64,000 bases of DNA, from positions 98,912 to 162,911 of IMG/VR virus record IMGVR_UViG_3300037205_000062. One strand, written 5' to 3'. A program made the translations under genes and the position numbers. This document shows positions 24,162-40,663 of the stretch, piece after piece. The stretch comes from a virus. A model generated the notes under the pieces. That model searched no databases. It was not told where the DNA came from and worked only from the letters and a program-made list of their open reading frames with translations. The first letter of the stretch is position 1. Each line of letters begins with the position of its first letter.

Positions 24162-24235
24162 GCGGTATTAGCACAAAAGTAGTGCATTTGCTTGCCAAGC
24201 AAGATAAGTCGGAGCATTACCGACATACCGCTCCA
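24162..24235 (+). tRNA. tRNA-Gly(GCC)
   Basis: Cloverleaf, U73, CCA; T-loop AGCATTA. Confidence 0.9.
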
Positions 24236-24240
24236 TTTTC

Positions 24241-24578
24241 GTGACTGAATTAAAACGATACTGTTATCGTTAAAGTTTTAAGCAGGTGAAGAATCTGTTT
24301 AAGTTGCCATGAAATCTTAGTAAATAAGGTAGTCAGAAACTTAGATTGGCCAATCGAAGTCTATGATGTAAGCTATTACTTATAGAACATAACGGATAGC
24401 TTTTTGCTGCGACGGCGGCGAGTGACTGAAATAAAATTGAAAAGATGTAATGCTTGGGCGTAGAAAGGAATCGCCCCGATTTAATTTATCTTTAGACGAG
24501 ATAGGCAAATGTCCTATTTACGAAAAGTGCAGGGAAAGCTACCTAGAAAGCTTGACATGATGGAGAGACATCTTTTCA
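24241..24578 (+). ncRNA. One or two unknown structured RNAs
   Basis: Dense hairpins; TGAAAAGATGT/ACATCTTTTCA closes 24438-24578. Confidence 0.5.
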
Positions 24579-24579
24579 T

Positions 24580-24654
24580 TGTAAGGTATCATAACAGTAA
24601 TGAATTTGCCTGTTAAGCAAAATTATGCAGGGGCGGAACCTGCCCTTACAGCCA
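24580..24654 (+). tRNA. tRNA-Asn(GTT)
   Basis: U1-A72, G73, CCA; T-loop GGCGGAA. Confidence 0.9.
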
Positions 24655-24773
24655 AATCATAAAGATAGTTATCCCTCTTATTTATAAGATTACTCGAAAA
24701 CGAGAAACAAAATAGGTGATGCTTGAGTGGGATTAAAATGGATAATATAGATTAATTTCTGTATTGTTCACTA

Positions 24774-24863
24774 TGCTGCGTGAAGGAAAATAGCCTTGTC
24801 GCCCTCATAAGGCGAATACTGAAAATGCGTATAAGTGGATAAAGACCCGCCGTTCAGCAACCA
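24774..24863 (+). tRNA. Atypical tRNA(CAT) with long variable region and bulged acceptor
   Basis: TGCTG/CAGCA-ACCA; TCGCC-CTCATAA-GGCGA. Confidence 0.65.
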
Positions 24864-24926
24864 TTTAGATAATCCTTGTGCCTTAATAACTTATAGAAAA
24901 ATCGGCAACGGCAAGAATTAAAAAAC

Positions 24927-24998
24927 ACACCCATGTTTAAGTAAACAATTTCGTCTCCAAAACGAAAAATCAAGGAGCGTTACCCTGTGGGTGTGCCA
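24927..24998 (+). tRNA. tRNA-Trp(CCA), small D-loop
   Basis: ACACCCA/TGGGTGT-G-CCA; CTCCAAA loop. Confidence 0.85.
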
Positions 24999-25005
24999 TT
25001 AATTT

Positions 25006-25083
25006 ATATGCGCTAAGTTCGTTTGAACCTTTTAACTTAAATGTTAAATTAGCCTAGACGTTAAACTCGTCTTGCGTATTCCA
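25006..25083 (+). ncRNA. tRNA-like element, anticodon undefined (loop CTTAAATG)
   Basis: ATATGCG/TGCGTAT-T-CCA, T-arm AGACG/CGTCT, two small hairpins. Confidence 0.55.
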
Positions 25084-25087
25084 TTTT

Positions 25088-25161
25088 ACCAAACTCCGAA
25101 AAGCAGTTCTAAGAGAACCACTTAGAGGTTCATCCGATGGTTCGGGATGCGGCTGTTTGGT
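25088..25161 (+). ncRNA. Three-way junction RNA with potential kissing loops
   Basis: ACCAAAC/GTTTGGT; complementary loops GAACCA and TGGTTC. Confidence 0.55.
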
Positions 25162-25177
25162 GATTAATTTAGAAAAT

Positions 25178-25268
25178 GGTCGGTGTCCTCATTGCGAATC
25201 TGTAAAATTCGTCCTTACAACAAAAATGAGAAGTTAGGTCAATGGAGCGTTACCATCACTGACTACCA
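25178..25268 (+). tRNA. Rewired tRNA-Tyr(GTA): D-loop-like segment 3' of anticodon arm
   Basis: Acceptor, A73-CCA, T-arm and CTGTAAA loop intact; CTCATT/AATGAG encloses anticodon arm. Confidence 0.7.
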
Positions 25269-25322
25269 TGTAATTAAAAATATTATAACAATCAGTAAAA
25301 TCTTTTGCCTAATTTATCTAAT

Positions 25323-25410
25323 GGAAGTCGTAAGTATCAGAGTTGATACGACGCACTTGAAATGCGTATGTGCCTACGGGCATGGGGGGCAGAACCTCAC
25401 ACTTCCGCCA
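25323..25410 (+). tRNA. tRNA-Ser(TGA)
   Basis: GGAAG acceptor (one bulge), long variable arm, G73-CCA. Confidence 0.85.
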
Positions 25411-25413
25411 TTT

Positions 25414-25614
25414 ATGACATTAAAAGAAGAAAATCAATGGTTTACTAATCATAAAAACCTTTGTAAATATAGTAGAAAACCAGAAAAAATTGACGAATCT
25501 GTTGCATGTGATTATTGTGGCACAGAAAATACTTATCCTTGGTTAGTTTGTGAAAATCCAAATTGCTATGAAGTTGTAGCATTAGAAAAACAAAGAAGAA
25601 AAAATAATTTCTGA
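25414..25614 (+). CDS. Small zinc-finger protein
   Basis: MTLKEE...CDYC...CENPNC; the upstream part of the tracked ORF is tRNA. Confidence 0.5.
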   Translation: MTLKEENQWFTNHKNLCKYSRKPEKIDESVACDYCGTENTYPWLVCENPNCYEVVALEKQRRKNNF

Positions 25615-25720
25615 CAGGCGGTAAATAAAGGGGTAAAAACATCATAGGTTTAGGCTATTTAGATAGTCAGAATCCTTCCAATTATTTAGGAAGTCCTTGA
25701 AAAATAGCCATTAATTTATT

Positions 25721-25796
25721 GGGGGTGTGGCTCGACAAGCAAGGCACCACGTTTGCAACGTGTTTTATGCAGGAGCGATACCTGTCACCTCCACCA
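25721..25796 (+). tRNA. tRNA-Ala(TGC)
   Basis: G3:U70, ACCA. Confidence 0.9.
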
Positions 25797-25798
25797 TT

Positions 25799-25910
25799 TT
25801 TGATAAGATTTGACGCGTGGACTACTTCGTAAGATGATAAAGTCCGAAGCTGGAAACGGCGAGAAGCCTGTTAAAACCAAAAGAGAGATACTTTTGTGTC
25901 CCTTATCAAA
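25799..25910 (+). ncRNA. Unknown structured RNA
   Basis: TTTGATAAG/CTTATCAAA closing stem; GGACT/AGTCC; GCTG-GAAA-CGGC; CAAAAG/CTTTTG. Confidence 0.5.
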
Positions 25911-25918
25911 TTTTTAAT

Positions 25919-25992
25919 TCCCGTTTCGTATAGAAGCATTACCTGCGCCTTTGGAGCGTAAGAAGGTGGAGCGTTACCATCAACGGGAGCCA
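25919..25992 (+). tRNA. tRNA-Gln(TTG)
   Basis: U1-A72, CTTTGGA loop, CCA. Confidence 0.88.
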
Positions 25993-26031
25993 AAAGATTT
26001 ATTTAGCATTAAAAATTTGTCAACATAAGTT

Positions 26032-26110
26032 GGGATATAGTCCGAAGTAGTCGAGGTACTTTCCTGTCACGAAAGAAATCTAACGGATGCGAGTTCCGTA
26101 TATCCCGCCA
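26032..26110 (+). tRNA. tRNA-Asp(GTC)
   Basis: CTGTCAC loop, G73-CCA. Confidence 0.88.
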
Positions 26111-26122
26111 ATTTAAATATAT

Positions 26123-26199
26123 GGACGTATAACTCAATTAGATAGAGTATCAGCTTGCGAAGCTGAAAGTTGAAAGTGCAAATCTTTCTACGTCCACCA
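26123..26199 (+). tRNA. tRNA-Arg(GCG)
   Basis: TCAGC-TTGCGAA-GCTGA. Confidence 0.88.
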
Positions 26200-26219
26200 A
26201 GGCTTTATTGCCTTTGTTT

Positions 26220-26270
26220 TTCAATTCATAAACAAAATTGAATGGTGGAGGCGGCGGGAAACCGTCGCCC
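26220..26270 (+). ncRNA. Two-hairpin element containing 18 nt antisense to a host-type tmRNA 3' end
   Basis: 26243-26260 is the reverse complement of TTCCCGCCGCCTCCACCA; caged in GGCGGCGG-GAAA-CCGTCGCC. Confidence 0.55.
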
Positions 26271-26286
26271 TTTAAATTTATTTAAT

Positions 26287-26362
26287 GGTATATATCCTCT
26301 ATGTAGTAAGAGCGCGGCCTGTGAAGCCGCCAAAACGAATGCAAGTTTCGTTATATACCCCA
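26287..26362 (+). tRNA. tRNA-His(GTG)
   Basis: G-1:C73, CTGTGAA loop. Confidence 0.9.
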
Positions 26363-26367
26363 ATTTT

Positions 26368-26451
26368 GGCCTCGTGACCTATTTGAGAATAGAACATCAT
26401 ACGGATTTAAACCCCGTGGTTTTGAAGGTGCAAGTCCTTTCGAGGCTACCA
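26368..26451 (+). tRNA. Atypical tRNA-Leu(TAA) without long variable arm
   Basis: TTTAAAC loop on ACGG/CCGT; acceptor identical to Ile(GAT); expanded D region. Confidence 0.6.
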
Positions 26452-26627
26452 TTTTTATTGATTATTTCTAAATAACTTAGAAAATTGGATTGATAAAAAC
26501 AAAATCTATGTTAGAAATTACAAGAAGTTTTGGATTAAAAAGTTCCAATTCAATTCGTAAATGGTGTCAATTATACCAAATAGATTATAAATCTCTTTCT
26601 CCATTTTCTTATAAGAAAAATTTTAAT

Positions 26628-26711
26628 GCGCTTATGTTGTAATAGAAGCCAAGCTGCGTTTAGACCGCAGTGGAGAAATCCGTGGGGGTGCAAGTCCCTC
26701 TAGGCGCACCA
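26628..26711 (+). tRNA. tRNA-Leu(TAG)
   Basis: Class II cloverleaf. Confidence 0.9.
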
Positions 26712-26713
26712 TT

Positions 26714-26827
26714 AGATTAGATCATATTAATGGTATTCGTAACGACAATAGACTAGAAAATCTTAGATTTTTATGTCCCAACTGCCATAGTCAAACACAA
26801 ACCTTCGGTTCTAAAAAAAGAATTTAA
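26714..26827 (+). pseudogene. HNH homing endonuclease remnant
   Basis: RLDHINGIRNDNRLENLRFLCPNCHSQTQTF, no start. Confidence 0.8.
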
Positions 26828-26828
26828 T

Positions 26829-26904
26829 GGCCCGTAGTAACAACAGCATGTTTGCCTCCTTTACACGGAGAATCGAGCAAGGGCAGCACTTGCACGGGCT
26901 ACCA
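26829..26904 (+). tRNA. tRNA-Val(TAC)
   Basis: TTTACAC loop, ACCA. Confidence 0.85.
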
Positions 26905-26949
26905 TTTTAATCTTGACATTACAATAAGAATCCACTAATATAGTTATAT

Positions 26950-27026
26950 CGGAATGTAGCGTAGGCTGGTAACGCGTCTGCTTTGGGAGCAGAAGATCGT
27001 GAGTCCGAATCTCACCATTCCGACCA
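26950..27026 (+). tRNA. tRNA-Pro(TGG)
   Basis: C1-G72, GG D-loop; TTGACA promoter just upstream. Confidence 0.92.
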
Positions 27027-27281
27027 TGTATGTTTGAAAAGTATATTACTCATATTTTTGAGAATAATGAGGAAGCAGAAAATGAATCAGCAAAAATTAT
27101 TCATTCAACAGCTAGTAGTATTAGAGGATGGGAACAGTATCAATCTTTTTTAAAAGATAAAAAAGAAAACGATACATTAGTTTGGTTTGATTATAGTTAT
27201 CCAATGGCTTCCAGAAAAGGATTGGGTATTCTAAGAAACGGTAAAATAATTTCTCATTGTATTTTTATAATGAGTTGATAC

Positions 27282-27370
27282 GGCTTCAAGATGTAAAGTG
27301 CATGGGGGGACTTATAATCCCTATAATCGGCAGATTGCCGTTCTGGACGGTGCAATTCCGTATGAAGCTA
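27282..27370 (+). tRNA. tRNA-Ile(TAT) with long variable arm, CCA not encoded
   Basis: GGGGA-CTTATAA-TCCCT; GGCA-GAT-TGCC arm. Confidence 0.75.
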
Positions 27371-27384
27371 CTAATGGTTTTAAT

Positions 27385-27460
27385 GGCCTCGTAACTCAAT
27401 TAGCAGAGTGTTCACCTGATTAGTGAAATGTTGGGGGTGCAAGTCCCTTCGAGGCTACCA
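27385..27460 (+). tRNA. tRNA-Ile(GAT), U37
   Basis: TTCAC-CTGATTA-GTGAA. Confidence 0.88.
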
Positions 27461-27475
27461 TTAAATATTTTTAAT

Positions 27476-27613
27476 ATGGACGAAACGATTACTATTTCCA
27501 AAGAAGAATATGAGGAACTTTTAGAAGATGCTAAATTCATGCGTGCATTAGAAGCCGCAGGAGTAGATAATTGGGAAGGATACGAATACGCCCAAGATTT
27601 ATTGGGAAAATAA
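27476..27613 (+). CDS. Small phage protein with GVDNWEGY motif
   Basis: MDETITISKEEY...ALEAAGVDNWEGY. Confidence 0.65.
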   Translation: MDETITISKEEYEELLEDAKFMRALEAAGVDNWEGYEYAQDLLGK

Positions 27614-27619
27614 TTTAAT

Positions 27620-27695
27620 GTTGCCGAATACAAAGAGACGAGTAAGTAGTCCTTCAAACTACTCCTAGCAGGTGCGAGTCCTGTCGGCAATACCA
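27620..27695 (+). tRNA. tRNA-Glu(TTC), C33
   Basis: GTAGT-CCTTCAA-ACTAC. Confidence 0.8.
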
Positions 27696-27700
27696 TTTAT

Positions 27701-27775
27701 GCATATGTAACTCAGAGGCAGAGTATTGCACTTCCAATGCAAAGGTCGAGATTTCAAAATTCTCCATATGCTCCA
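27701..27775 (+). tRNA. tRNA-Gly(TCC), canonical elbow
   Basis: GG D-loop, TTC T-loop. Confidence 0.92.
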
Positions 27776-27876
27776 ATTTCCAAGACGGAATCGTTTCTGG
27801 CGTTGCCAGACTAGAAATAGCTAAGTTACAATGTTTCGGTTTTAAAGACAAAATAACTACACCTGTCCTTGGAAAT
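27776..27876 (+). ncRNA. Unknown structured RNA filling the Gly-Thr spacer
   Basis: ATTTCCAAG/CTTGGAAAT; TCTGGC/GCCAGA; AGTTA/TAACT. Confidence 0.5.
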
Positions 27877-27880
27877 ATTT

Positions 27881-27955
27881 GCTTCGTAAGCATAAAAAGT
27901 GATGCACTTGATTTGTATCCAAGATAAGCCAGAGCGTTACTGGCACGAAGCTCCA
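27881..27955 (+). tRNA. tRNA-Thr(TGT)
   Basis: Cloverleaf, CCA. Confidence 0.88.
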
Positions 27956-28032
27956 ATTTTTTTAGTTTTAAAAAAACAATTAATTTTCAAATAATACTTG
28001 ACACAATTTTAAATATTTGTTAATCTTTAAAT

Positions 28033-28470
28033 ATGACTAAAGTATCTATTGAAGCTGTTTTGGAGGGTTTGAAGCGGGCGGGAGTAGCAGCCAAAGAAGT
28101 TGGAGTAACATTGAATTATTTGGAAAAGGTTGCTCAAGAAGAACAAGCTCAAAAGGACGCTGAAAAGCTTCCGACTCAAAAAAATGAATATGGTGTTATT
28201 TTATTTGATGTAGATGGAGTAATATCTGGAAAAGATTTTTCAGCAGTTGTTTACCAAATTCCGCAGGGTGATGACCATGGTTTAGTTTTGGGCAAAATTT
28301 CGGAATCTATACGAGAACAAATGGCAGCAGCAAAACGTAAAAAATTTACAATTGATACACTTGGCGCGGCAATTCAAAGCTTAAAGCGTAAGTTTATTAA
28401 AGATAAAAATGTTAATTTGAAGACTAAAAATCCCGTGAGAGTATTGATAAGTAATAATAAATTAGTTTAA
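28033..28470 (+). CDS. Hypothetical protein
   Basis: ORF behind TTGACA promoter. Confidence 0.55.
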   Translation: MTKVSIEAVLEGLKRAGVAAKEVGVTLNYLEKVAQEEQAQKDAEKLPTQKNEYGVILFDVDGVISGKDFSAVVYQIPQGDDHGLVLGKISESIREQMAAAKRKKFTIDTLGAAIQSLKRKFIKDKNVNLKTKNPVRVLISNNKLV

Positions 28471-28505
28471 TATGCAAACATGAAGATAGAAGAATAATAA
28501 TTTAA

Positions 28506-28582
28506 GCGTTCGTAGCTAAAATAGCCAAAGCATTCGGCTTTTAACCGAAATAGTGTGGGCGCAAGTCCCACCGAGCGCACCA
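28506..28582 (+). tRNA. tRNA-Lys(TTT)
   Basis: CTTTTAA loop. Confidence 0.9.
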
Positions 28583-28604
28583 TTTTGTTAAAAGTTTTTA
28601 ATTT

Positions 28605-28678
28605 GCGCTACAAGCATTAAAATGATGCAAAAGGTTCTTACCCTTTAGAACACGGCGTATTACCGTGGTGGCGCACCA
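28605..28678 (+). tRNA. tRNA-Lys(CTT)
   Basis: TTCTTAC loop; T-loop CGTATTA. Confidence 0.85.
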
Positions 28679-28851
28679 ATCTAATTTAGTAACCTCACCA
28701 GCTATCGCGCTTGGTCAAGAAAAAATAATACTTGTGGTGTCGCAAGGAGGCGAAGTAATTTTATGGAAATAAAAACAATAGACAATTTAATTATTGATAC
28801 TCATAAAGAAAACTATATTAACGCAGAAATGATTGAGTTAATGGAAAAATC

Positions 28852-29151
28852 ATGAAAATTAAAACTATCAATGGAGAGACTGTAGATACTGTTAAATTGG
28901 CAGATTTGAAATCTCAATTTATTGAAACAATGGAATCAAATGCCATAGTAGATTTTTCAAAGAAATTTGGTGCGTCATTTTTTTTATTTGGAAGATGTCA
29001 AGATGAAGGTTGGGTAAAATTTAATATACCTAATGAAAAAGAATTCAATTTTTTATTAATGGCGATAAATGAATACGTTGATACACAATCTGGCGGTAAA
29101 TATCATTTGGAAATGGTTCCGAATAATATTGAGCCAACGGAAGAAATATGA
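28852..29151 (+). CDS. Hypothetical protein, paralog of 20235-20561
   Basis: INGETVDTVKLAD...SGGK. Confidence 0.55.
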   Translation: MKIKTINGETVDTVKLADLKSQFIETMESNAIVDFSKKFGASFFLFGRCQDEGWVKFNIPNEKEFNFLLMAINEYVDTQSGGKYHLEMVPNNIEPTEEI

Positions 29152-29379
29152 AATTTTATGTTAAAGCAATTGGTCCGAATAGATATTCTGGTGGAAGTTG
29201 TAATTGGCTATTAATAAGAGAAATAAAAAGAGAAAATGATAGTTTAGTTATAAAAATTAAAACTAAATGGGGTATTAAATATATTTCTTGTAGTTTAGAT
29301 ATGGTAACTCCAAATTTAATTTTTAAGAATGAACTAAATGGATTTGAAAATTTTAAAAATATTTGCGATAAATTTAAAT

Positions 29380-29455
29380 GACTACTAAACTAATCAAGTG
29401 AAAGTGCAATTCTGAAAAAATTGAAAGTCGTGAGCGTTACACGAAGTAGTCACCA
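29380..29455 (+). tRNA. tRNA-Phe(GAA)
   Basis: CAATT-CTGAAAA-AATTG. Confidence 0.85.
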
Positions 29456-29459
29456 GATT

Positions 29460-29552
29460 GGAAGATACACGAATAGTTAGGTTTTCGTAGAAATTTGCTA
29501 AATTTCCGTTCCCGAAAGGGGACTGTCGGGGCGGCACCGACATCTTCCGCCA
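29460..29552 (+). tRNA. tRNA-Ser(GCT)
   Basis: Long variable arm, G73-CCA. Confidence 0.9.
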
Positions 29553-29639
29553 ATAAACAAAAATGAAATATGATTATCAAAATCAAATTTAATTTAAAAG
29601 ATAAAGTGTTAATCAAAGAACGTAAGTGTAATAATCTAC

Positions 29640-30371
29640 ATGGCTCAATGTCGTCAATGTAAAGCGAAACTTAATGCTCATGTAAATTATTGGCATCAGG
29701 AATTGACTCCTACCGATAATCAAAATAGTAGAGAGGATATTTCTAAAGCTTTACCTAGTTGGGCTAGTGAAATGGCCGCATTTTGTAGCGCCAAATGTCT
29801 TTCAAGTTATCTTCAAGGTCAAGGTCAATCTGTAGCCAAATTAGATGGTACGCCTTCTGGGACTGGTATTGTTGATCTTTTGCGCGAACCTTTTAAATAT
29901 ACTAATATAACAAAACAAGAATTGGATAGAAGAGGTTTTAATGCTCTTCAAAATAAAAAAGTAGTTAATGATATAACGGAAGATAGAAAAATAGTCAATC
30001 AAACCTATGACAAAAAAGGCGCAAAAAATGATGGAAATAAGGGGGATTTAAGAAGTCAAGTAGGTTTAGCTACGCCAGAAGAAGACGCCAGCCAAAAACC
30101 AGTTTTTGATAAATTAAAACAACTTAAGGATAAAGAAAATATGGAAACTCAAGCAAAAACAACAAAAACTTGTGATAATTGTAAATGCGTTCTTGATGCT
30201 AAAGAAGATAAAGGGGAAATGATTAAGGCTACACTAAACGACCATTCAACACAAAAAAATAAGCAATATGATCTTTGCAGCGAGGAGTGTCTTCGTCAAA
30301 TGTTAAACGGAAGAAGTAAAAAGAAAAAATCTAAAGCCAGTATTATTGAATTAGATATGTCTATCGAATAA
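29640..30371 (+). CDS. Protein with two TRASH/MYM-like Cys zinc-binding units
   Basis: CRQC...FCSAKC and CDNC...LCSEEC; GTGTAAT promoter. Confidence 0.6.
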   Translation: MAQCRQCKAKLNAHVNYWHQELTPTDNQNSREDISKALPSWASEMAAFCSAKCLSSYLQGQGQSVAKLDGTPSGTGIVDLLREPFKYTNITKQELDRRGFNALQNKKVVNDITEDRKIVNQTYDKKGAKNDGNKGDLRSQVGLATPEEDASQKPVFDKLKQLKDKENMETQAKTTKTCDNCKCVLDAKEDKGEMIKATLNDHSTQKNKQYDLCSEECLRQMLNGRSKKKKSKASIIELDMSIE

Positions 30372-30419
30372 AATTATAAAAATATCTATTTTTTTGTGTA
30401 ATTACTTTTATAATAATTT

Positions 30420-30994
30420 ATGAATACTTCAAATGCTAAACATTGCGTAGCTTGTGATGAATGCGGGGCTAGTCTTGGTGAACTTTATCCTAATGACCAT
30501 AATAATATCTCTGTACAATTGAGTGATATGGGTAAACATCATGCTGGTGATAGCGAAACTGCTTACCATAACCCAGAAAAATCTCTTAGTTCTAAAAAAA
30601 CATTTCATTTTTGTGATGAAAGTTGTATGGCTTCCAATCTAAATAAGCGCGCCAAAGCTAAAGCTAAGATGTCTAAGATGTCTAAGGCGAATGTTGTTGA
30701 TTATCAAGGTAATATAGAAGTAGATATGACTGATTACCTAAAAAAAAAGAGTTTGAGTTAAGCGAAGCGGCCTATATATCAACTCATGAAAGAAGTAAGT
30801 TGGGTGAGGAACATTTTTTAGACAAAAAGCGTCGTTCTTTTCCCATTAGACCAGGTCATGAATGTACTGATTTGAACGCTGCACTTCATAGAATTGGAAC
30901 ATATAAAGGTGAATTAAGTCACGAAGAACTTCATAGTAAAATTTTAAGTCGTATGAAATCTCATGGCTGCCCTTTACCCAAAAGCGATAAATAA
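30420..30994 (+). CDS. TRASH-like zinc protein probably joined by -1 frameshift (A9G at 30740-30749) to downstream domain
   Basis: Frame 0 ends at 30761; -1 frame open from the A-run to 30994 with no ATG before the domain. Confidence 0.5.
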
Positions 30995-31009
30995 ACATTT
31001 TATAAAATT

Positions 31010-31312
31010 ATGAAAAAAACTCTATTTACTACGGTATCTTTAATGGCGTTAACTGTTTGTGCTTTCGGACAAACAAATAACATCACGCCCGTGATTGTAA
31101 CCGACTTTCCATCTGCTATTAGCGCCGCATTTCATTTTGTTAACATAAACGTTAATCCAACCTTACTAATTTTAGTTCTACACTTGTTAGGTAAATATTA
31201 TACTAATTATCATCTTGCTGATAAATTTTCTCACGAAATTAATTGGTTTGGTAAACTTGCTAGTGTAGTTGCTTTAATTCCTATTAAACAAATATCCCCA
31301 TCATCTAAGTAA
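31010..31312 (+). CDS. Secreted/membrane protein
   Basis: Signal peptide MKKTLF...AFG, hydrophobic segments. Confidence 0.55.
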   Translation: MKKTLFTTVSLMALTVCAFGQTNNITPVIVTDFPSAISAAFHFVNINVNPTLLILVLHLLGKYYTNYHLADKFSHEINWFGKLASVVALIPIKQISPSSK

Positions 31313-31600
31313 TTGTATATATGTCATATACTACTGGTACATTACCATATTTAGAAAGTAGAATGCATCAGCTATCTCAAAATAGTGGAGATTTAAATAG
31401 TTATGCGTTAGAAGCTCAAAATAATTATACATTAACTCCATCGCATGCTGATAAATTAAACAAAGAATTTCATAAAATAATGTTATCAGTTCATAATGTA
31501 GTCGAAACTGGAAAACACTTTTAAAATTTAAGCCATCCGAAAGGGTGGTGACGATTACATAAACGATAATCCTCAAGGGTTGTCGCTTTTTCTCATTGTT

Positions 31601-31669
31601 GCCAGTGACGTTAAGAACGACCAAATCTTCATAAGATTTAGGGAGACGGGGCAGAACCGACCATTGGCA
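31601..31669 (+). tRNA. Degenerate tRNA(CAT) (Met or Ile2), no CCA
   Basis: GCCAGTG/CATTGGC, AAATC-TTCATAA-GATTT, 3-nt D-loop. Confidence 0.6.
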
Positions 31670-31673
31670 GTAT

Positions 31674-31768
31674 TTTACATAGTGACAAACGAAGATGCTA
31701 CCTACCATTATTGTAAGTCGTTTAAGTACGTTGATATTGGTTAGAACGGTGTGCAATTTCTATGTAAA
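31674..31768 (+). ncRNA. Unknown structured RNA
   Basis: TTTACATAG/CTATGTAAA closing stem; AAACGA/TCGTTT. Confidence 0.4.
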
Positions 31769-31772
31769 TAAT

Positions 31773-31845
31773 GGGGTTATAGAATAATAGTTAATTCGCT
31801 AATTTCTCGAATTAGTTATCGTGAGTGCGATTCTCCGTAACCCTT
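31773..31845 (+). tRNA. tRNA-Glu(CTC), copy 1 (bulged T-stem, no CCA)
   Basis: CTAAT-TTCTCGA-ATTAG. Confidence 0.7.
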
Positions 31846-31847
31846 CT

Positions 31848-31932
31848 TGCGCAATGGCGTAATTACAAGCCGCGCCAGTTTCAAACTCTGGTGTTGAAAA
31901 ACGTGTGGGTGGAAGTCCCTCTTGCGCAACCA
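31848..31932 (+). tRNA. tRNA-Leu(CAA), copy 1
   Basis: Class II; C19-G56. Confidence 0.8.
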
Positions 31933-32243
31933 ATTTCTTCTTGACAATATTCTAAAGATAGCATAATATTTGTTATGCCTTACATTAAACCAGAAAATAG
32001 AAACAAATATACAAGTTCAATCAATAATTTAGTTAATTTGTTGACTAATGATGGTTGCGAAGCTGACGTAGGAGAAATTAACTACGTTATCTCTTCTGTT
32101 ATTTGGAAGTTATTTAAAAATAAACGTAGATATAAAACTGGTAATGATTTAATGGGCGTTTTGGAATGCGTTAAACAGGAATTTTATAGACGGCAATTGG
32201 CCGAACTAGAAAATGAAAAAATTAAAGAAAATGGAGATATTTT

Positions 32244-32762
32244 ATGAAGGTAATTAATCTTTTCGCAGAAGCGGGAGCGGGTAAATCTACTACTGCTGCT
32301 GGTCTATTTTTCTTAATGAAGTGTGCGGGCTACCATGTTGAATTAGCAACTGAATATGCTAAAGATTTAGTACATGAAGAACGTACAAAAACTTTTAATG
32401 ATCAGTTGTATATTACTGCAAAACAAAATCACAAACTATTTTTATTAAATAATAAATATGATTATGCCATTACTGATTCTCCATTGTTATTGGGCTTAGT
32501 TTATAGACAAGATGATTGTGTATCATATTTTGATGATTTAGTATTTCAATTATTTAATTCATATGAGAATGTAAATATTCTTTTAACTCGATCAAAACCT
32601 TATAAACAAATTGGCAGAAATCAAACAGAAGAGGAATCTAAAAAAATCAGAGAAAATATACTTCAAATGTTAAATTATTATAATTTGGATTATTATTCAG
32701 TTGTAGCTGACGATAAAGCGCCACATGAAATTTTTTACAGATTAAAACTTGACAAATTTTAA
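32244..32762 (+). CDS. P-loop kinase/ATPase (AAA_28, NadR-like)
   Basis: INLFAEAGAGKST, EYAK, ITDSP, GRNQ. Confidence 0.75.
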   Translation: MKVINLFAEAGAGKSTTAAGLFFLMKCAGYHVELATEYAKDLVHEERTKTFNDQLYITAKQNHKLFLLNNKYDYAITDSPLLLGLVYRQDDCVSYFDDLVFQLFNSYENVNILLTRSKPYKQIGRNQTEEESKKIRENILQMLNYYNLDYYSVVADDKAPHEIFYRLKLDKF

Positions 32763-33048
32763 AACCTATTTTACATTTGATTATTAATAAATAATTTATG
32801 AATTTTGATCAATGGTATTTCAATTTTGATGAAACTAACAGGGTGGCAACGGCGCAAGATGGTTGGAATGCCTGTAAAAAAGAAATTATTAAAATAATAG
32901 CCAAACACGAAAAGGAGACTTATTGGATTACTTTAGATTGGAAAGAACAAGATTGGATTAAAAAAATAAAAGAGTTGTGAAAAAAGATTCTTTTTATTAC
33001 GATGGTAGATAAGTTTACTTAACTGGCGAAAGCCAAGAAAGGAGAATA

Positions 33049-33453
33049 ATGGAAAAATATTATGAATGTATTGGAATAGTAAATTATTCTGATAAAGATG
33101 GTTGGATAACTATGACCCTTCCCCAATCTTTATCTAATTATTATTCTTGGTGGGTTAAGAGATTTATTTGGAAAGGTGTTTCTACTCCGCTATACGGTTG
33201 TCATTGCACCATTTTACCAGCAAAACACAACGGAGATTTTCGCAAACATTCAGCGTGGAAAAAACATCAAGGAGAAAAAGTAAAAGTAATATATGAGTCT
33301 AAAATATATACTGATAATGATTGGTTTTTTATGGGGCGCTATTTTTGGTTGAGAATCCAAACAGATATTGTTGGGCAAATAAGAGGAGAATTTGGTTTGC
33401 CAAAAGAATTATATTGGCCGTTGCACGCTACTATTGGTTATTGTCAACAATGA
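33049..33453 (+). CDS. 2H phosphoesterase-like protein
   Basis: Two HxT motifs (HCTI, HATIG) about 75 aa apart. Confidence 0.6.
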   Translation: MEKYYECIGIVNYSDKDGWITMTLPQSLSNYYSWWVKRFIWKGVSTPLYGCHCTILPAKHNGDFRKHSAWKKHQGEKVKVIYESKIYTDNDWFFMGRYFWLRIQTDIVGQIRGEFGLPKELYWPLHATIGYCQQ

Positions 33454-33744
33454 TAAATTGTATATTTGTATTATGAAAGAAATTAAAATTCCCATGAATG
33501 ATTATATAGAAAGACAAAAAGATATAAATTTTCTGTTAAGCTTTTCGTGTGATATTATAGCAAGTTATTCTTTATTAAAAGATTATGATGTTAGACATGT
33601 GGCTTGGGCGATAGATAGATTATTTGGTTATAATCCATCGCTAGAAGAACAAAAAGAAATTTGTAAACCCAATAAAAATGTAAAAGTCCCCAAATATGAT
33701 TTACTGACAGAGGGTTATGACCCTAATAAATTGCCAAAATAAAT

Positions 33745-33831
33745 GCTTATATGGCGAAATAGAAAACGCATAACGTCGAGAGCGTTACACCCGTAAGGGG
33801 TTTGCAAGTGCAAGTCTTGCTATAAGCACCA
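33745..33831 (+). tRNA. tRNA-Leu(GAG), C33
   Basis: TAACG-TCGAGAG-CGTTA, long variable arm. Confidence 0.85.
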
Positions 33832-33880
33832 TTTGCAAAGAATGTTGGGAAAAAGATTTTAAAGATTTAGAATAAATATT

Positions 33881-33956
33881 GGGGTTATCGTCTAATTAGA
33901 TAGGACTAGAGTTTCTCGAACTTTGAATTTGGTTGCAAATACCAATAACCCCTCCA
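33881..33956 (+). tRNA. tRNA-Glu(CTC), copy 2
   Basis: AGAGT-TTCTCGA-ACTTT, CCA. Confidence 0.85.
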
Positions 33957-33959
33957 AAT

Positions 33960-34044
33960 AGCCAAATGGCGTAATTACAAGCCGCGCTAAACTCAAAATT
34001 TAGTGTCGAAAGACGTGAGAGTGGAAATCTCTCTTTGGCTACCA
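33960..34044 (+). tRNA. tRNA-Leu(CAA), copy 2
   Basis: CTAAA-CTCAAAA-TTTAG. Confidence 0.88.
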
Positions 34045-34049
34045 TTTAT

Positions 34050-34559
34050 ATGTCTTTTCAATCTGCTACCCCTCAAGGCCCAAATAATACTATGACAGAT
34101 GTTTGGATTACTCCTCAATGGATTATAGATAAAATTGGCGTATCTGACCTTGATCCTTGCGGATGGTTGCCAAATGGAACCCCTATAATTCAAACCGCTT
34201 ACAATTATTTTACAGAAAAAGATAATGGATTAATACAAGATTGGTCAAAATATAAAAGTGTTTTTGTTAATTTTCCTTATTCACAAAGTTATGAATGGCT
34301 TGAAAAATGTAAAATAGAATCAAATAAAGGATGCGAAATTATAGTTTTGTGTTTTGTCAGATCAGAGACTCGTGCTTGGCAACAAAATATTAAAAATGCC
34401 ACGGGTATTAATTTAATAAATAAAAGAATTAAATTTTTAACTCACGAAGGGATAGAAAAGGGAAATGGAAATTGCCCAAGTTGTTTGATAGCATGGGGAG
34501 AAAACTCCTTTAATAGAATTAAAAAAGTTGATGGGATTTATTTAAAACTTGACAAATAA
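34050..34559 (+). CDS. Phage DNA N6-adenine methyltransferase
   Basis: W.TP, DLDPC, DNGL..DW, VFVNFPYS, RSET..W. Confidence 0.8.
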   Translation: MSFQSATPQGPNNTMTDVWITPQWIIDKIGVSDLDPCGWLPNGTPIIQTAYNYFTEKDNGLIQDWSKYKSVFVNFPYSQSYEWLEKCKIESNKGCEIIVLCFVRSETRAWQQNIKNATGINLINKRIKFLTHEGIEKGNGNCPSCLIAWGENSFNRIKKVDGIYLKLDK

Positions 34560-34562
34560 TAA

Positions 34563-34832
34563 TTTGCTTCTAAAACAGCTATTAGAGATAGTATTAAATA
34601 TCCTTGGCGCGTAGATTGGAATAAAGAATTATCTATGAAAGTTATGCGTTATGCTTTAGACTATAAATTTAAAAAAGGTACAGATTGGTATAGAAAGTTA
34701 AAATTAACTGAAAATTGGGAAATAATAGAGTGGAATAATTGGCATGATGTTTGGTGGGGTAAAGATATTAAAACGCGTAAAGGCGAAAATCATCTTGGAA
34801 AGATATTAATGGAAATAAGAGATAAGACTTGA
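34563..34832 (+). pseudogene. N-terminally truncated NADAR-family gene
   Basis: R.DW...MKVM...L..KF, E.NNWHDVWWG, GENHLGKILMEIR. Confidence 0.65.
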
Positions 34833-35035
34833 ACGGCTTGATAATAATGAAAAAAATTCCAATTAAAGATTGTAATGGAAAAATGATTTATGAAGGTGAT
34901 TTAGTTGAAATAGACGGTAAAATTCACAAAGCTTTATTTTTTAATGAGAATGATTTTTGGTTCTATAAAGATGGCGCTGGATGGATTTATGACTTGGGAA
35001 AATATAAAATAAAATTATGGGGCAAGTCTTTATAA
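34829..35035 (+). CDS. YopX-like protein
   Basis: KDCNGKMIYEGD. Confidence 0.55.
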   Translation: MNGLIIMKKIPIKDCNGKMIYEGDLVEIDGKIHKALFFNENDFWFYKDGAGWIYDLGKYKIKLWGKSL

Positions 35036-35046
35036 ATTAAAAAATT

Positions 35047-35325
35047 ATGACAACCGTAGTGAATATTAAGAATGGTAATAAATATGATGTTTATTGTGGA
35101 CGAGGCAGTATATTTGGAAATCCATATGAAATAGGGAAAGATGGAACAAGAGAACAAGTCATAGAACGTTATAAAATTTGGTTTAATTTCTTATTAAAAG
35201 ATAAATTTTTTGTAAACGAATTATTAAAACTTAATGGTAGAACTTTGGGCTGTTTTTGCGTGCCACAAAAATGTCATTGTGAAATAATAAAGGAATGGCT
35301 TGACAATCCCAAAAACTTTAAATAG
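35047..35325 (+). CDS. DUF4326-family protein
   Basis: DVYCGRGSIFGNPY, LGCFC.P..CH. Confidence 0.8.
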   Translation: MTTVVNIKNGNKYDVYCGRGSIFGNPYEIGKDGTREQVIERYKIWFNFLLKDKFFVNELLKLNGRTLGCFCVPQKCHCEIIKEWLDNPKNFK

Positions 35326-35988
35326 TATATAAATATGACCTATGCTTTTAGAAAATGGTGATTATTATTGGCAGGGAAACGAGGAAGAATGCAATGATTG
35401 TCATGAAAAATATCCTATGATGTGGATGATAATGTGTGATTTTGGTATAATAAGATGTTTTGATTGTTGGCAAAAAAACGAAGAGTATGAAAGAAAAAAA
35501 ATTTAAAATACTTAAGTATTATAAAACTTTTCGAGAGTGGTCAAACGAAGGATATAGTATAAACAAGGGAAGCAAGGCGACGTGGGTAAATAATATACCA
35601 AAATTCAGTCGCTCGCAGGTTACTAAAAGATTTAGTAATAGTAGACGTTATTCTATTTGGGAAAATTATGATCCGCGAGATGGTGATGCGGATTTTGAAA
35701 ATGGTTATAGTGACGAAGAAATGGGTTTTGATATAAATGATTTTGGAGATAATTAAAATATGAAAAAGAAATTTTATAAAACAGTTCCATGCGATTGTAA
35801 TGAATGTAAATCGTCTCGTTCTATTGGTGGAAATTCTGGTACTAAAAAAATAGAAGTTAAACCACATTCTTGTTTCGAGAATTCGCGAGTTACCAAATGC
35901 GATGGGGGAGCAAAAGATGAACGCACTTGTAATATATGTGGGAAAGTTTGGGAATGTTCTTGTAATTTTGATGATGATTTTGATTAAT

Positions 35989-36064
35989 GGTGTCGTGGTC
36001 GAGTAGCTAAGACAGCGGATTGCAAACCCGTTATTCCTTGGTGCAAATCCAAGCGATACCTCCA
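35989..36064 (+). tRNA. tRNA-Cys(GCA)
   Basis: U73-CCA. Confidence 0.9.
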
Positions 36065-36190
36065 TTTTAAGTACGATTTTATTAAATTGAATAGTGTAAG
36101 TATTATTGATGGATTGGCCCGCAATAATTACTTTCATAATAATAGCAACAATTTTAATTGGTTGGTCTATTTTTATTTTGAAATGATAAT

Positions 36191-36266
36191 GGGCATATAA
36201 CTCAAATAGATAGAGTCCTCCCTTCTAAGGAGCGAGATTCGGGTGCAATTCCTGATATGCCTACCA
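36191..36266 (+). tRNA. tRNA-Arg(TCT)
   Basis: CTTCTAA loop, AGATA D-loop. Confidence 0.88.
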
Positions 36267-36394
36267 TTTGTAACATGACACAAAAAGAAAAAAATGCTTT
36301 ATTAAAGATTGTAAAGGAACTGGAAAAACTTAAATAACGAGACAACTTTAATGTTGGTTTCACGCTATTAGCGTGAATGTGTAATAATTAGTGT

Positions 36395-36733
36395 ATGATT
36401 TCCTTAATCAAACACTATTATCACAAGTTAACTAAAAAAATTAGCGAGCCAAAACGTTCTGACAAATGGCCAACAGTTAGAAAACATCATTTAGAAAAAG
36501 AAGGTTGGTGTAAATTTTGTGGTGGGACAGAAGGTTTACAAGTACATCATTGCGAACCGTTTCATATTGATCCTGCAAAAGAATTAGACCCAACAAATTT
36601 AATTACATTATGTGAATTAATGGACAAAGAATGTCATTTACATATAGGACATTTAGGTAATTGGAAAAACTTTAATCCAAAAGTAAGAGAACAAGCTAAT
36701 TCTCCTAAAGTTGGGACGCCAGCTTCTAAATAA
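36395..36733 (+). CDS. HNH endonuclease
   Basis: CKFCG...VHH...NLITLC...CH; GTGTAAT promoter. Confidence 0.8.
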   Translation: MISLIKHYYHKLTKKISEPKRSDKWPTVRKHHLEKEGWCKFCGGTEGLQVHHCEPFHIDPAKELDPTNLITLCELMDKECHLHIGHLGNWKNFNPKVREQANSPKVGTPASK

Positions 36734-36743
36734 TTTATTATTT

Positions 36744-36820
36744 GTTCGTATATCGGTCTAGCTTCCTAAGCCTGATACCGTAGATAGATAAGGTGGGTGC
36801 AAATCCCTCTGCGAACTCCA
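36744..36820 (+). tRNA. Rewired tRNA-Arg(CCT): D-loop-like segment 3' of anticodon arm
   Basis: GTTCGTA/TGCGAAC-T-CCA; TTCCTAA loop; TAGATAGATA before T-arm. Confidence 0.65.
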
Positions 36821-36894
36821 TGCTCTATGGTGTAGTAGGAACACGTTTGACTCTGAATCAAATATCTTGGGTGCAAATCCTAATAGAGCAACCA
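36821..36894 (+). tRNA. tRNA-Gln(CTG)
   Basis: CTCTGAA loop, U1-A72. Confidence 0.9.
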
Positions 36895-36921
36895 AAATAG
36901 TTAATAGAAGATAGATTGTAT

Positions 36922-36995
36922 GCCTTGTTAGTTTAACAGAAAAACGTATCATCGGTAATGATAAAACGTAAGGGCAGCACTTACACTTGGCTCCA
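36922..36995 (+). tRNA. tRNA-Thr(GGT), C33, two U-U mismatches in acceptor
   Basis: TATCA-TCGGTAA-TGATA. Confidence 0.8.
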
Positions 36996-37295: not shown

Positions 37296-37657
37296 ATTTA
37301 TTGACATTAAAATAAAAGTGTAATAAATTTAATAATAATAAATTCATTTAATATGAAAGAACCATGGGAAGATAGCCCTTGGTATAAAGAATGGTTAGAA
37401 TTGGCCCATAATAAGCCAAAACAACCTGAAATTGGTTATTGGTATTGGGACAGTGTAAATAAATGTTGGAAATTTCAAAACTAGATAAATAATAAATATG
37501 AGTTGTGTAAAAGTAGAATGTAGTAATGCTTTGTTATGGATATGGGCGTTATGCTTGTTTGGTGGAATGATTTTAGTTCTATCTATGGGCATAGAAGACG
37601 GCTGTCATCTTTTAAAAGATTACTTGACAAATAAATAAAACTAACCTATTATTGATT

Positions 37658-38134
37658 ATGGTTGATTTTCTTAATCAAGATTTGTTAGAAGTTAGTGTTG
37701 ATGTTATAATTCAAAGTAATAATTGTTTTTGTACTCAAGGCACGGGAATTGCAAAAGCTATCCGTGAAAAATATCCAGAAGTTTTTACCCAAGATAGTCT
37801 TACTAAAAGAGGCGATGCGAATAAATTAGGGACTATTTTACCAGTTAAATTAGTAACCTCCGTTGCTCCTTATTATTGTTTATTAAACTATAATCAATAT
37901 AAATTTGGAAGAAATAAAAGACAAGTAAATTATGAATCATTTTATCGTTGTCTTGAATTATCTAAAGATTTTTGTATCAAAAATGGTTGTAAAACTTTGG
38001 GATTGCCGTATAAAATGTCTTGTCACAATGCGGGAGGATCGTGGCCAGTTGTTTTGTGTATGATTGAATCAGTTTTTAATGATGAAAATATTAAAGCATA
38101 TATATGTAAATTGCCTGAAATTGACCCTTTTTGA
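37658..38134 (+). CDS. Macro domain (ADP-ribose hydrolase-like)
   Basis: DLL...DVIIQS.NCF...G.GIAK.I..KYP, LPY...AGG.W. Confidence 0.8.
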   Translation: MVDFLNQDLLEVSVDVIIQSNNCFCTQGTGIAKAIREKYPEVFTQDSLTKRGDANKLGTILPVKLVTSVAPYYCLLNYNQYKFGRNKRQVNYESFYRCLELSKDFCIKNGCKTLGLPYKMSCHNAGGSWPVVLCMIESVFNDENIKAYICKLPEIDPF

Positions 38135-38143
38135 TATTATAAT

Positions 38144-38668
38144 ATGAGTGACGTTATGTATAATGATTTTCCAGATTGGAAAGAAAAGATAAAAAGTTAT
38201 CTTGTTCATGATGAAGCTCAAATAAAGGGATTTTTCTTTGATTATCGTTGGTTAAGTAACTTTTCTAAAGGTAAGTGTTGTTATGAAGGCGATATTTATC
38301 TTTATTCTGAAAATGCTTATCAGGCCGCCAAAGTGTCACCAGAACATAGAAAAAGGTTTTTTTTCTGTTCCCCTTCTGAATCAAAAAAGATTTGGAAAGA
38401 TTTACCTCCAATAGATATTAGCAAAGACGACTGGGATAAACGCAAATATGATGTTATGTTTGACATTGTAGTAAGTAAATTTTTGTTTAATAAAGATTTG
38501 CGCCAAAAGTTAATTGATACTGGCAATCGTTATTTGGAAGAAACAAATCATTGGCATGATAATTTTTACGGTTATTGTATATGCGAGCGGTGTAAGGATA
38601 AAATACATCAAAATATGCTTGGGAAAATCCTTATGCTTAATAGGACTTTTTATCAAAATAATAAATAG
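38144..38668 (+). CDS. NADAR-family protein
   Basis: WLSNF, SENAYQAAK, W...KYDVM, L.E.NHWHDNFYG, N.LGKILM. Confidence 0.88.
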   Translation: MSDVMYNDFPDWKEKIKSYLVHDEAQIKGFFFDYRWLSNFSKGKCCYEGDIYLYSENAYQAAKVSPEHRKRFFFCSPSESKKIWKDLPPIDISKDDWDKRKYDVMFDIVVSKFLFNKDLRQKLIDTGNRYLEETNHWHDNFYGYCICERCKDKIHQNMLGKILMLNRTFYQNNK

Positions 38669-40425: not shown

Positions 40426-40663
40426 ATAGAATAATCTAACGCTGTATTAGGTAAAACCCTAATATAGAGGAAGTTCGACGGAGCTAAACAGCCGTGGCAG
40501 GAATAAAATCCGTTATTGACCACAAGGTAGCTCTAATTCTAAACGTCCGAGGGTAATGTTTCCCGTTGACGACAGGTTGAAGCAGCCATTATTAGTACAT
40601 GGCCATTAGAAATAATGAGATAAATGTTAGATTGAAATTAACAAAACGTCGGCTATTTTCTAT
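40426..40663 (+). ncRNA. rnpB: Compact RNase P RNA (~238 nt)
   Basis: P1, P2 AATCTAAC/GTTAGATT, P3, P4 GAGGAAGTTCGACG / AACAAAACGTCGGCT, J18/2 AGATAAAT; TTGACA promoter at 40391. Confidence 0.85.

Follow-up and report, generated by a model that had tools for sequence, protein, structure and literature searches.

Two contacts of the tRNA elbow, G18–Ψ55 and G19–C56, are textbook invariants. The tRNA clusters of the phage T5, Bacillus phage Deep Blue and Caulobacter phage CcrBL9 keep GG in the D-loop and TTC in the T-loop almost throughout. Here we describe a tRNA array at positions 24162–36995 of a 64-kb window, the last 64 kb of the 162,911-bp phage contig IMGVR_UViG_3300037205_000062 from IMG/VR (31% G+C, estimated to be 79% complete). 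The array shares with these clusters the cloverleaf, the anticodon repertoire, the clustering with HNH endonucleases and the encoded CCA, but 30 of its 33 genes carry G55, accompanied by AG in the D-loop.

Several other described systems come close to the array in one respect each. The staphylococcal non-proteogenic tRNA-Gly species NP1-3 have a UGC T-loop and have lost U55 and G18, as the array genes have (PMC13443448, PMC7826273); they also lack G19, possess an extra 31–38 pair, are weak in EF-Tu determinants, function in cell-wall synthesis alone and are specific for glycine, whereas the phage genes retain a 19:56 pair, have 7-nt anticodon loops and cover at least 18 amino acids. The G-clamp T-loop of rRNA and riboswitches shares the N-G-C-R-N sequence, the 1:5 closing pair (U:A, A:U, C:A or G:G), Watson–Crick pairing of position 3 over a distance and the intercalation of a base other than G (PMC2615604, PMC6158498), but these examples belong to other RNAs, and in the literature within reach the form is not described for the elbows of translational tRNAs. 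L-arrays are accessory tRNA sets beside a housekeeping set and are linked to homing endonucleases (Santamaria-Gomez et al. 2021, PMC8421152); that paper mentions no T-loop or D-loop deviations, and the array described here is on a phage. Escape from anticodon nucleases by phage tRNAs with an altered anticodon loop (Azam et al. 2024, PMC11555353, as cited in PMC13462974; T5) follows the same logic that we propose below, a phage tRNA proof against a host nuclease. The known escape cases alter the anticodon loop of single tRNAs, whereas the array alters the T-loop/D-loop contact of a whole set and its resistance is putative. A literature search, with most subscription journals outside its reach, found no description of A18:G55 in translational tRNAs.

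Remodelling of the tRNA elbow

Counting T-loop positions from the 3' end places G at position 55 in 30 of the 33 genes, U in two (Gly-UCC at 27701 and an odd gene at 25006) and C in one (Pro at 26950). At position 56, 29 genes have C, the two Leu-CAA genes (31848, 33960) have G, Lys-CUU (28605) has U and the gene at 25006 has A. Position 57 is a purine in all genes, and G53:C61 is retained in 28 of 32. AG stands in the D-loops at the usual GG site; GG is left only in Gly(UCC) and Pro, which are also the two regular genes without G55. The conserved G18–G19 and T54–Ψ55–C56 of the Rfam tRNA family RF00005 are found together only in Gly(UCC). A sequence-only reading of this DNA had singled out the same two genes, Gly(TCC) with GG plus TTC and Pro with GG plus TCC, against a majority with G55 and AG D-loops, and these counts bear it out; its other specific observations are likewise confirmed, with one qualification on 54:58 given below.

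Changes at the two sides of the elbow are matched. Positions 18–19 read AC in both Leu(CAA) genes and AA in Lys(CUU), complementary to their G56 and U56, so that 19:56 is C:G and A:U there and G:C in most other genes, as had been proposed. We formulated the match as a pairing rule, in which A18 goes with G55, G18 goes with U55 or C55, and base 19 is complementary to base 56. The rule is obeyed by 28 of the 29 regular cloverleafs; when the T-loops were redistributed among the genes at random 200,000 times, no trial gave more than 26. Standard numbering is unambiguous in the seven array genes with a 7-nt D-loop, and all seven fit the rule. The sole exception is Trp, which has an irregular D arm with AG still inside it. 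A MAFFT alignment of 22 tRNAs from the window proved structurally incorrect, and gap-free alignments of genes with the same architecture took its place.

The closing pair 54:58 takes the form U:A in 19 genes, A:U in six and G:G in five, and position 60 tracks it (U:A:Y, A:U:A or G:G:A). The earlier suggestion that 54:58 follows the other changes holds for these three main forms, but not for three genes with other combinations (A:A, C:A and C:U, one each). At the level of sequence the T-loops match the G-clamp form, with a 1:5 closing pair (U:A, A:U, G:G, C:A or A:A), G55, a base 56 that pairs with 19 and a purine at 57. Remodelling of the elbow extends over the whole array, and 18:55, 19:56 and 54:58 genuinely covary. 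In the tmRNA that the phage encodes, the T-loop is still TTC and GG is retained, and therefore the change is specific to tRNAs.

Gene content of the array

Default-settings ARAGORN called 13 tRNAs in the window, and Rfam at the gathering score found 11 tRNAs and the tmRNA at 14958–15343. Because nearly all array genes end in an encoded CCA, we built a scanner anchored on the 3' end, which requires CCA, a discriminator base, a 7-bp acceptor stem, a 5-bp T stem and a 7-nt T-loop, and then D and anticodon arms. As a control, the scanner gave 712 matches in real DNA and none in 2.1 Mb of shuffled DNA. Together with relaxed ARAGORN it identified 33 tRNA or tRNA-like genes within 12.8 kb, all on the plus strand. 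With the HNH reading frame inside the array and the tmRNA, which served as an internal control, the features are as follows (numbers before bases are tRNA positions).

14958–15343, +, phage tmRNA: Rfam 73.8 bits; T-loop 54–56 TTC; GG in D-loop analogue
24162–24235, +, tRNA-Gly(GCC): 18–19 AG; 54–58 AGCAT; 7-nt D-loop
24580–24654, +, tRNA-Asn(GTT): 18–19 AG; 54–58 GGCGG; 7-nt D-loop
24927–24998, +, tRNA-Trp(CCA): irregular 3-bp D arm with AG; 54–58 AGCGT
25006–25083, +, odd tRNA-like gene, possibly Leu-TAA: 8-nt anticodon loop; 54–58 TTAAA (U55, A56)
25178–25268, +, odd, rearranged tRNA-like gene with GTA (Tyr) anticodon arm: 54–58 AGCGT
25323–25410, +, tRNA-Ser(TGA): long variable arm; 54–58 GGCAG
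25721–25796, +, tRNA-Ala(TGC): AG in D-loop; 54–58 AGCGA
25919–25992, +, tRNA-Gln(TTG): 18–19 AG; 54–58 AGCGT; 7-nt D-loop
26032–26110, +, tRNA-Asp(GTC): AG in D-loop; 54–58 TGCGA; A8
26123–26199, +, tRNA-Arg(GCG): AG in D-loop; 54–58 TGCAA
26288–26362, +, tRNA-His(GTG): AG in D-loop; 54–58 TGCAA
26368–26451, +, odd tRNA-like gene with acceptor stem of Ile(GAT): 54–58 TGCAA
26628–26711, +, tRNA-Leu(TAG): AG in D-loop; 54–58 TGCAA
26829–26904, +, tRNA-Val(TAC): AG in D-loop; 54–58 GGCAG; A8
26950–27026, +, tRNA-Pro(TGG): GG in D-loop; 54–58 TCCGA (C55)
27385–27460, +, tRNA-Ile(GAT): AG in D-loop; 54–58 TGCAA
27620–27695, +, tRNA-Glu(TTC): AG in D-loop; 54–58 TGCGA; A8
27701–27775, +, tRNA-Gly(TCC): only fully canonical elbow, GG; 54–58 TTCAA
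27881–27955, +, tRNA-Thr(TGT): AG in D-loop; 54–58 AGCGT; A8
28506–28582, +, tRNA-Lys(TTT): AG in D-loop; 54–58 CGCAA
28605–28678, +, tRNA-Lys(CTT): 18–19 AA; 54–58 CGTAT (A19:U56); A8; 7-nt D-loop
29380–29455, +, tRNA-Phe(GAA): AG in D-loop; 54–58 AGCGT; A8
29460–29552, +, tRNA-Ser(GCT): long variable arm; 54–58 GGCGG; A8
31773–31846, +, tRNA-Glu(CTC): AG in D-loop; 54–58 TGCGA; sole gene without encoded CCA
31848–31932, +, tRNA-Leu(CAA): 18–19 AC; 54–58 TGGAA (C19:G56)
33745–33831, +, tRNA-Leu(GAG): AG in D-loop; 54–58 TGCAA
33881–33956, +, tRNA-Glu(CTC): AG in D-loop; 54–58 TGCAA
33960–34044, +, tRNA-Leu(CAA), second copy: 18–19 AC; 54–58 TGGAA (C19:G56)
35989–36064, +, tRNA-Cys(GCA): AG in D-loop; 54–58 TGCAA
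36191–36266, +, tRNA-Arg(TCT): AG in D-loop; 54–58 TGCAA
36395–36733, +, HNH endonuclease open reading frame (ORF) inside the array: PF01844; typical of mobile tRNA clusters
36744–36820, +, odd tRNA-like gene, possibly Arg-CCT, rearranged: 54–58 TGCAA
36821–36894, +, tRNA-Gln(CTG): 18–19 AG; 54–58 TGCAA; 7-nt D-loop
36922–36995, +, tRNA-Thr(GGT): 18–19 AG; 54–58 GGCAG; 7-nt D-loop

Regular cloverleafs, which we define by a 7-bp acceptor stem, a D arm, a 5-bp anticodon stem with a 7-nt loop (U33, R37) and a 5-bp T stem with a 7-nt loop, account for 29 of the 33 genes and cover 18 amino acids. The gathering score of RF00005 (29 bits) is reached by 11 genes in a standard search and by 15 with permissive filters; the remaining genes fall below it, as expected when it is the most conserved loop positions that differ. 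These low scores, together with the four genes of irregular architecture (25006, 25178, 26368, 36744), could point to decaying pseudogenes or gene-finder artefacts. We consider this scarcely probable at all: the stems are intact, changes between paralogues and homologues are compensatory, CCA is encoded in 32 of 33 genes, and the scanner is silent in shuffled DNA. Many one-strand tRNA genes stand here among small ORFs and homing endonucleases, as in mobile tRNA arrays.

The four irregular genes have good acceptor and T arms and an encoded CCA, with odd or rearranged D and anticodon regions. The array's sole Tyr (GTA) anticodon arm sits in one of them (25178–25268). Within 24162–36995 a CAT anticodon (Met, fMet or Ile2) was found in none of the regular tRNAs; a Met tRNA may be hidden in an irregular gene or left to the host. 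In seven tRNAs (starting at 26032, 26829, 27620, 27881, 28605, 29380 and 29460) A8 replaces the near-universal U8 while A14 is retained, and therefore s4U8 is impossible in them and the 8:14 contact must differ. The tRNA-Pro at 26950 is 82% identical to tRNA-Pro of phiKZ, which has TTC, and a D-loop/T-loop pair near-identical to that of Ser(GCT) at 29460 is present in locus L254. The only close relative identified is a 4-kb contig (L247, identical to L259), in which all four recognised tRNAs have G55; a megablast against cultured phages and a related-locus search with one array ORF gave no relatives. A scan with a D-arm pattern returned three chance matches, none with a tRNA.

The same elbow in other phage tRNAs

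Two scans of IMG/VR, one for a G55 T arm with CCA after it and one, as control, for the canonical T arm, gave 236 loci with 706 distinct tRNA-like genes. The scans confirm the earlier remark that G55 T-loops occur in other phage tRNAs. Among the 186 tRNAs with a 7-nt D-loop, 18:55 is G:U in 143, A:G in 34, G:C in seven, G:G in one and U:U in one; A18 is found with G55 in 34 of 35 cases (Fisher p=1.8e-36), and the flanking D-loop positions have no comparable link to position 55. In the same tRNAs 19:56 is G:C in 180, U:A in two and A:U in one. G:G at 54:58 is nearly confined to G55 tRNAs in the sample. A gap-free alignment of 81 phage tRNAs has 93.8% of its cloverleaf cells paired, against 60% in shuffles. 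The matching of A18 with G55 is a general rule of phage tRNAs and not a quirk of one array.

The elbows of the cultured phages T5 and Deep Blue are canonical. Two single genes from cultured phages depart from the standard elbow. The T5 tRNA-Ile(GAU) (L242:8211-8287) has a TTT triplet in the T-loop and GA at 18–19, an A19:U56 swap. In Caulobacter phage CcrBL9 an unannotated tRNA-Tyr with G55 and AG (L241:15588-15673) adjoins annotated canonical tRNAs.

In loci baited with canonical tRNAs, G55 is found in nine of 311 other tRNAs (3%), with AG in eight of the nine. The array, at 91% G55, is extreme against this phage background of about 3%. Five further contigs, from phages or metagenomes, carry the scaffold of its Leu(CAA) genes (A18, C19, G55, G56) with the anticodons GAG, UAG and CAA, mostly within otherwise canonical arrays. 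The six distinct Leu sequences differ by 17 stem pairs altered on both sides, a number that none of 500 shuffles reaches, while nothing varies in columns 8–27 (D arm and loop) or in the core of the T-loop. Invariant loops combined with compensated stem changes indicate that the variant elbow is probably under purifying selection in this scaffold. Whether G55 tRNAs share a single origin is barely separable by identity: with the loops masked, it is 0.57 between G55 tRNAs, 0.53 between G55 and U55 tRNAs and 0.55 between U55 tRNAs.

A serious rival to any adaptive explanation is neutral compensated drift with spread by descent, in which A18:G55 is simply an acceptable alternative that arises by paired changes under relaxed constraint, fills the array by descent, duplication and exchange of tRNA genes among phages, and confers no benefit of its own. 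The low frequency of the elbow in canonical-baited arrays, its spread over tRNAs of 19 amino acids in the IMG/VR sample and the movement of scaffolds such as the Leu gene between otherwise canonical arrays agree with drift. The persistence of the variant loops while the stems turn over is harder to reconcile with it. Moreover, yeast SUP4oc tolerates no single change at positions 18, 19, 55 and 56 (PMC4117946), and each switch of the elbow therefore needs a paired change.

Occurrence in cellular genomes and bacterial arrays

A search with the G55 bait in one genome per prokaryote species revealed tRNA-like genes at 42 of 120 loci. The matches include tRNA-Cys in many archaeal and candidate phyla radiation (CPR) bins, tRNA-Met in cyanobacterial arrays and several genes of a Mycoplasma. 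A tRNA-Cys(GCA) whose D-loop has AG and whose T-loop reads TGCAAAT turns up in many bins of archaea (Asgard, Poseidoniales) and CPR bacteria (L265, L273, L277, L290, L300, L303, L316, L326 and others).

Of the 28 tRNA genes of Mycoplasma sp. SG1 (G004; 623 kb), six combine G55 with an AG D-loop, including those for Asp, Pro, Gln and Glu; the genome also has U19:A56, C19:G56 and A19:U56 variants. Since these four genes are the sole ones for their amino acids, the design must serve ordinary translation there. The sequence-only reading had called the elbow orthogonal, a view that this result does not support; nor is the elbow confined to phages. The same genes, essential and single-copy, bear on the idea that the phage tRNAs are non-translational, acting as aminoacyl donors outside the ribosome. 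The only published natural UGC T-loop tRNAs that we found, the staphylococcal ones, are indeed kept out of translation (PMC13443448, PMC7826273). The use of the same elbow by the Mycoplasma, the regular anticodon arms for at least 18 amino acids and the retention of G19:C56 make such a role very improbable for the array.

A second genome with native G55 tRNAs is a Saccharibacteria bin (G005), with G55 in four of its 40 tRNA genes. TruB was not detected in Mycoplasma sp. SG1 or in this Saccharibacteria metagenome-assembled genome (MAG), while it was detected in 14 of 14 control genomes and in two Verrucomicrobia bins. This suggests that U55 in cells is held largely by dependence on TruB. It could also mean that the phage merely follows the design of a host in which TruB and related enzymes of the T-loop are missing and G55 is already in use in the native tRNAs. 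Such host matching is unlikely. The native share of G55 in the two genomes is only 6/28 and 4/40, against 91% in the phage, and the phage tmRNA is canonical. Furthermore, all-G55 arrays reside in TruB-positive cells: in each of the two Verrucomicrobia bins (7.0 and 5.4 Mb) the dispersed tRNAs are canonical (17 of 17 checked), and one contig carries an array of about 20 tRNAs that is almost wholly G55. These Verrucomicrobia arrays fit the description of L-arrays.

The near-complete conversion is not unique to the phage. Nine other sampled arrays have 86–100% G55, and the novelty that the sequence-only reading saw in the extent of the change is not supported. These arrays have 50–63% G+C, far from the 31% of the phage, and therefore AT pressure does not explain the switch. 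We rule out AT mutational pressure as a driver; the share of G55 rises with GC if anything (Spearman 0.33). TROVE (Ro60/Rsr) genes adjoin two of the almost all-G55 Verrucomicrobia arrays (L288:2454-3893, L340:6252-7757).

For neutral drift these data cut both ways. Its case gains from the presence of the elbow in fast-evolving reduced genomes, and loses from arrays of 86–100% G55 in contexts as unrelated as 31% and 50–63% GC, beside canonical native sets. On balance we regard drift as a serious but rather doubtful explanation of the arrays.

Structural reading

T-loops consist of a U:A handle and a UNR or GNR turn, and tRNA is the U-clamp case among mostly G-clamp examples; alternative closing pairs C:A, A:A and G:G occur (PMC2615604). 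In the T-loop of the cobalamin riboswitch the closing pair is A–U, the G at position 2 is nearly invariant and a distant G is the partner of position 3; the base that intercalates is preferably U or A, and is G in variants with U at position 2 (PMC6158498). The general G-clamp form is matched by the phage T-loops UGCRA, AGCRU and GGCRG, together with A18 and the 19:56 pair.

From this match to published G-type T-loops we infer a model of the phage elbow. G55 would make the sharp turn of the T-loop in its G-clamp form, and A18 would slot between bases 57 and 58, touching G55. The 19:56 Watson–Crick pair would still cap the corner, which would allow G:C, C:G or A:U, and 54:58 would close the loop in one of the three matched forms. 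The L-shape would be preserved, and synthetases, EF-Tu, the ribosome and RNase P could then use the array tRNAs. The chemistry of G55 and A18 leaves no Ψ55 and no Gm18, and m5U54 is chemically impossible in 13 genes without U54. This structural reading appears well grounded; the adaptive reading of the elbow is a hypothesis that can be tested directly.

Possible benefits of the G55 set

We propose that the array may consist of functional tRNAs that use an alternative design of the elbow, forming a set that is independent of modification and escapes nucleases; we consider the chances of this evenly balanced. Such a set would be self-sufficient, folding without the T-loop modification enzymes of the host, which would suit a burst of phage tRNA synthesis. 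It would also be no substrate for nucleases that cut at U54–U55. Both benefits are plausible, and they are compatible with each other. The sequence-only reading had named both; the first, independence from modification, draws indirect support from the distribution of TruB described above.

T-loop nucleases of this kind have been described. The CRISPR-associated Schlafen nuclease CbCash cuts 28 E. coli tRNAs 5' of U55, single changes of U54 or U55 abolish cutting, and its authors consider the fate of phage tRNAs still an open question (PMC13462974). CdiA-CT(E479) cleaves inside the T-loop (PMC9086364), and restriction by a Schlafen-Argonaute system is weaker against a phage that carries tRNAs of its own (10.64898/2026.05.29.728809). 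The UUC motif is missing from the G55 T-loops of the array. A pan-tRNA nuclease would be countered only by a complete resistant set, which would explain near-total G55 arrays. Extending this argument, we tentatively suggest that all-G55 sets are an elbow counter-defence, in phages and as spare bacterial arrays, supplying a replacement pool that nucleases of the Schlafen/Cash and CdiA-CT(E479) types could not cut; the G18–U55 of cells would then be held mainly by dependence on enzymes of the TruB type and not by the fold.

Several observations weigh against this proposal. U55 or C55 persists in the tmRNA, Gly(UCC) and Pro, so that a UUC-directed nuclease would still find targets. Met is without a regular tRNA and Tyr is found only in a rearranged gene, so the completeness of the set is not established. 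A search of the phage contig, 79% complete, gave no match to Schlafen, TruB, RtcB or TROVE/Ro60. The link to TruB comes from two genomes only, one of them an incomplete MAG, and the array sample was baited with the G55 motif, which may bias the apparent all-or-none distribution.

A T-loop nuclease could also be the phage's own, destroying host tRNAs while the phage set escapes, in a wholesale replacement of the tRNA pool. The near completeness of the set, its encoded CCA and the possession of a tmRNA agree with such self-immunity. We find it decidedly unlikely, as no candidate nuclease was found, the contig being without a Schlafen-domain match, and the canonical tmRNA and Gly(UCC) would be cut too.

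Neighbourhood of the array

An HNH endonuclease at 45470–46099 is 39–43% identical to ORFs in the G55-rich arrays L251, L288, L362 and L378, which is consistent with a spread of tRNA clusters driven by homing endonucleases. Immediately downstream of the array, at 37652–38668, 41150–42268 and 43183–44595, are macro-domain and NADAR ORFs, a cytidylyltransferase-like ORF and a NAMPT homologue, which look like a block for NAD salvage and ADP-ribose handling. A candidate mini RNase P RNA at 40426–40663 has motifs that by eye resemble conserved regions I, IV and V and a predicted long-range helix. Its fold is only modestly better than that of shuffles (z=-2.5), and it has no match to Rfam RNase P models even at E up to 10.

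Implications

Whole tRNA sets do without G18 and U55, with a matched A18 and G55 in their place. To the description of this elbow we contribute the link to T-loop nucleases, the correlation with TruB, the argument from G+C content and the evidence of selection from the Leu scaffold. Most genes of this kind escape standard finders, which recovered 13 and 11 of the 33 here. If the tRNAs work, tRNA counts of phages and mobile arrays are therefore underestimates, the requirements of the fold would be separable from those of the modification enzymes, and it would become testable whether T-loop nucleases such as CbCash target phage tRNAs. Working tRNAs of this kind would also offer modification-independent scaffolds for engineering.

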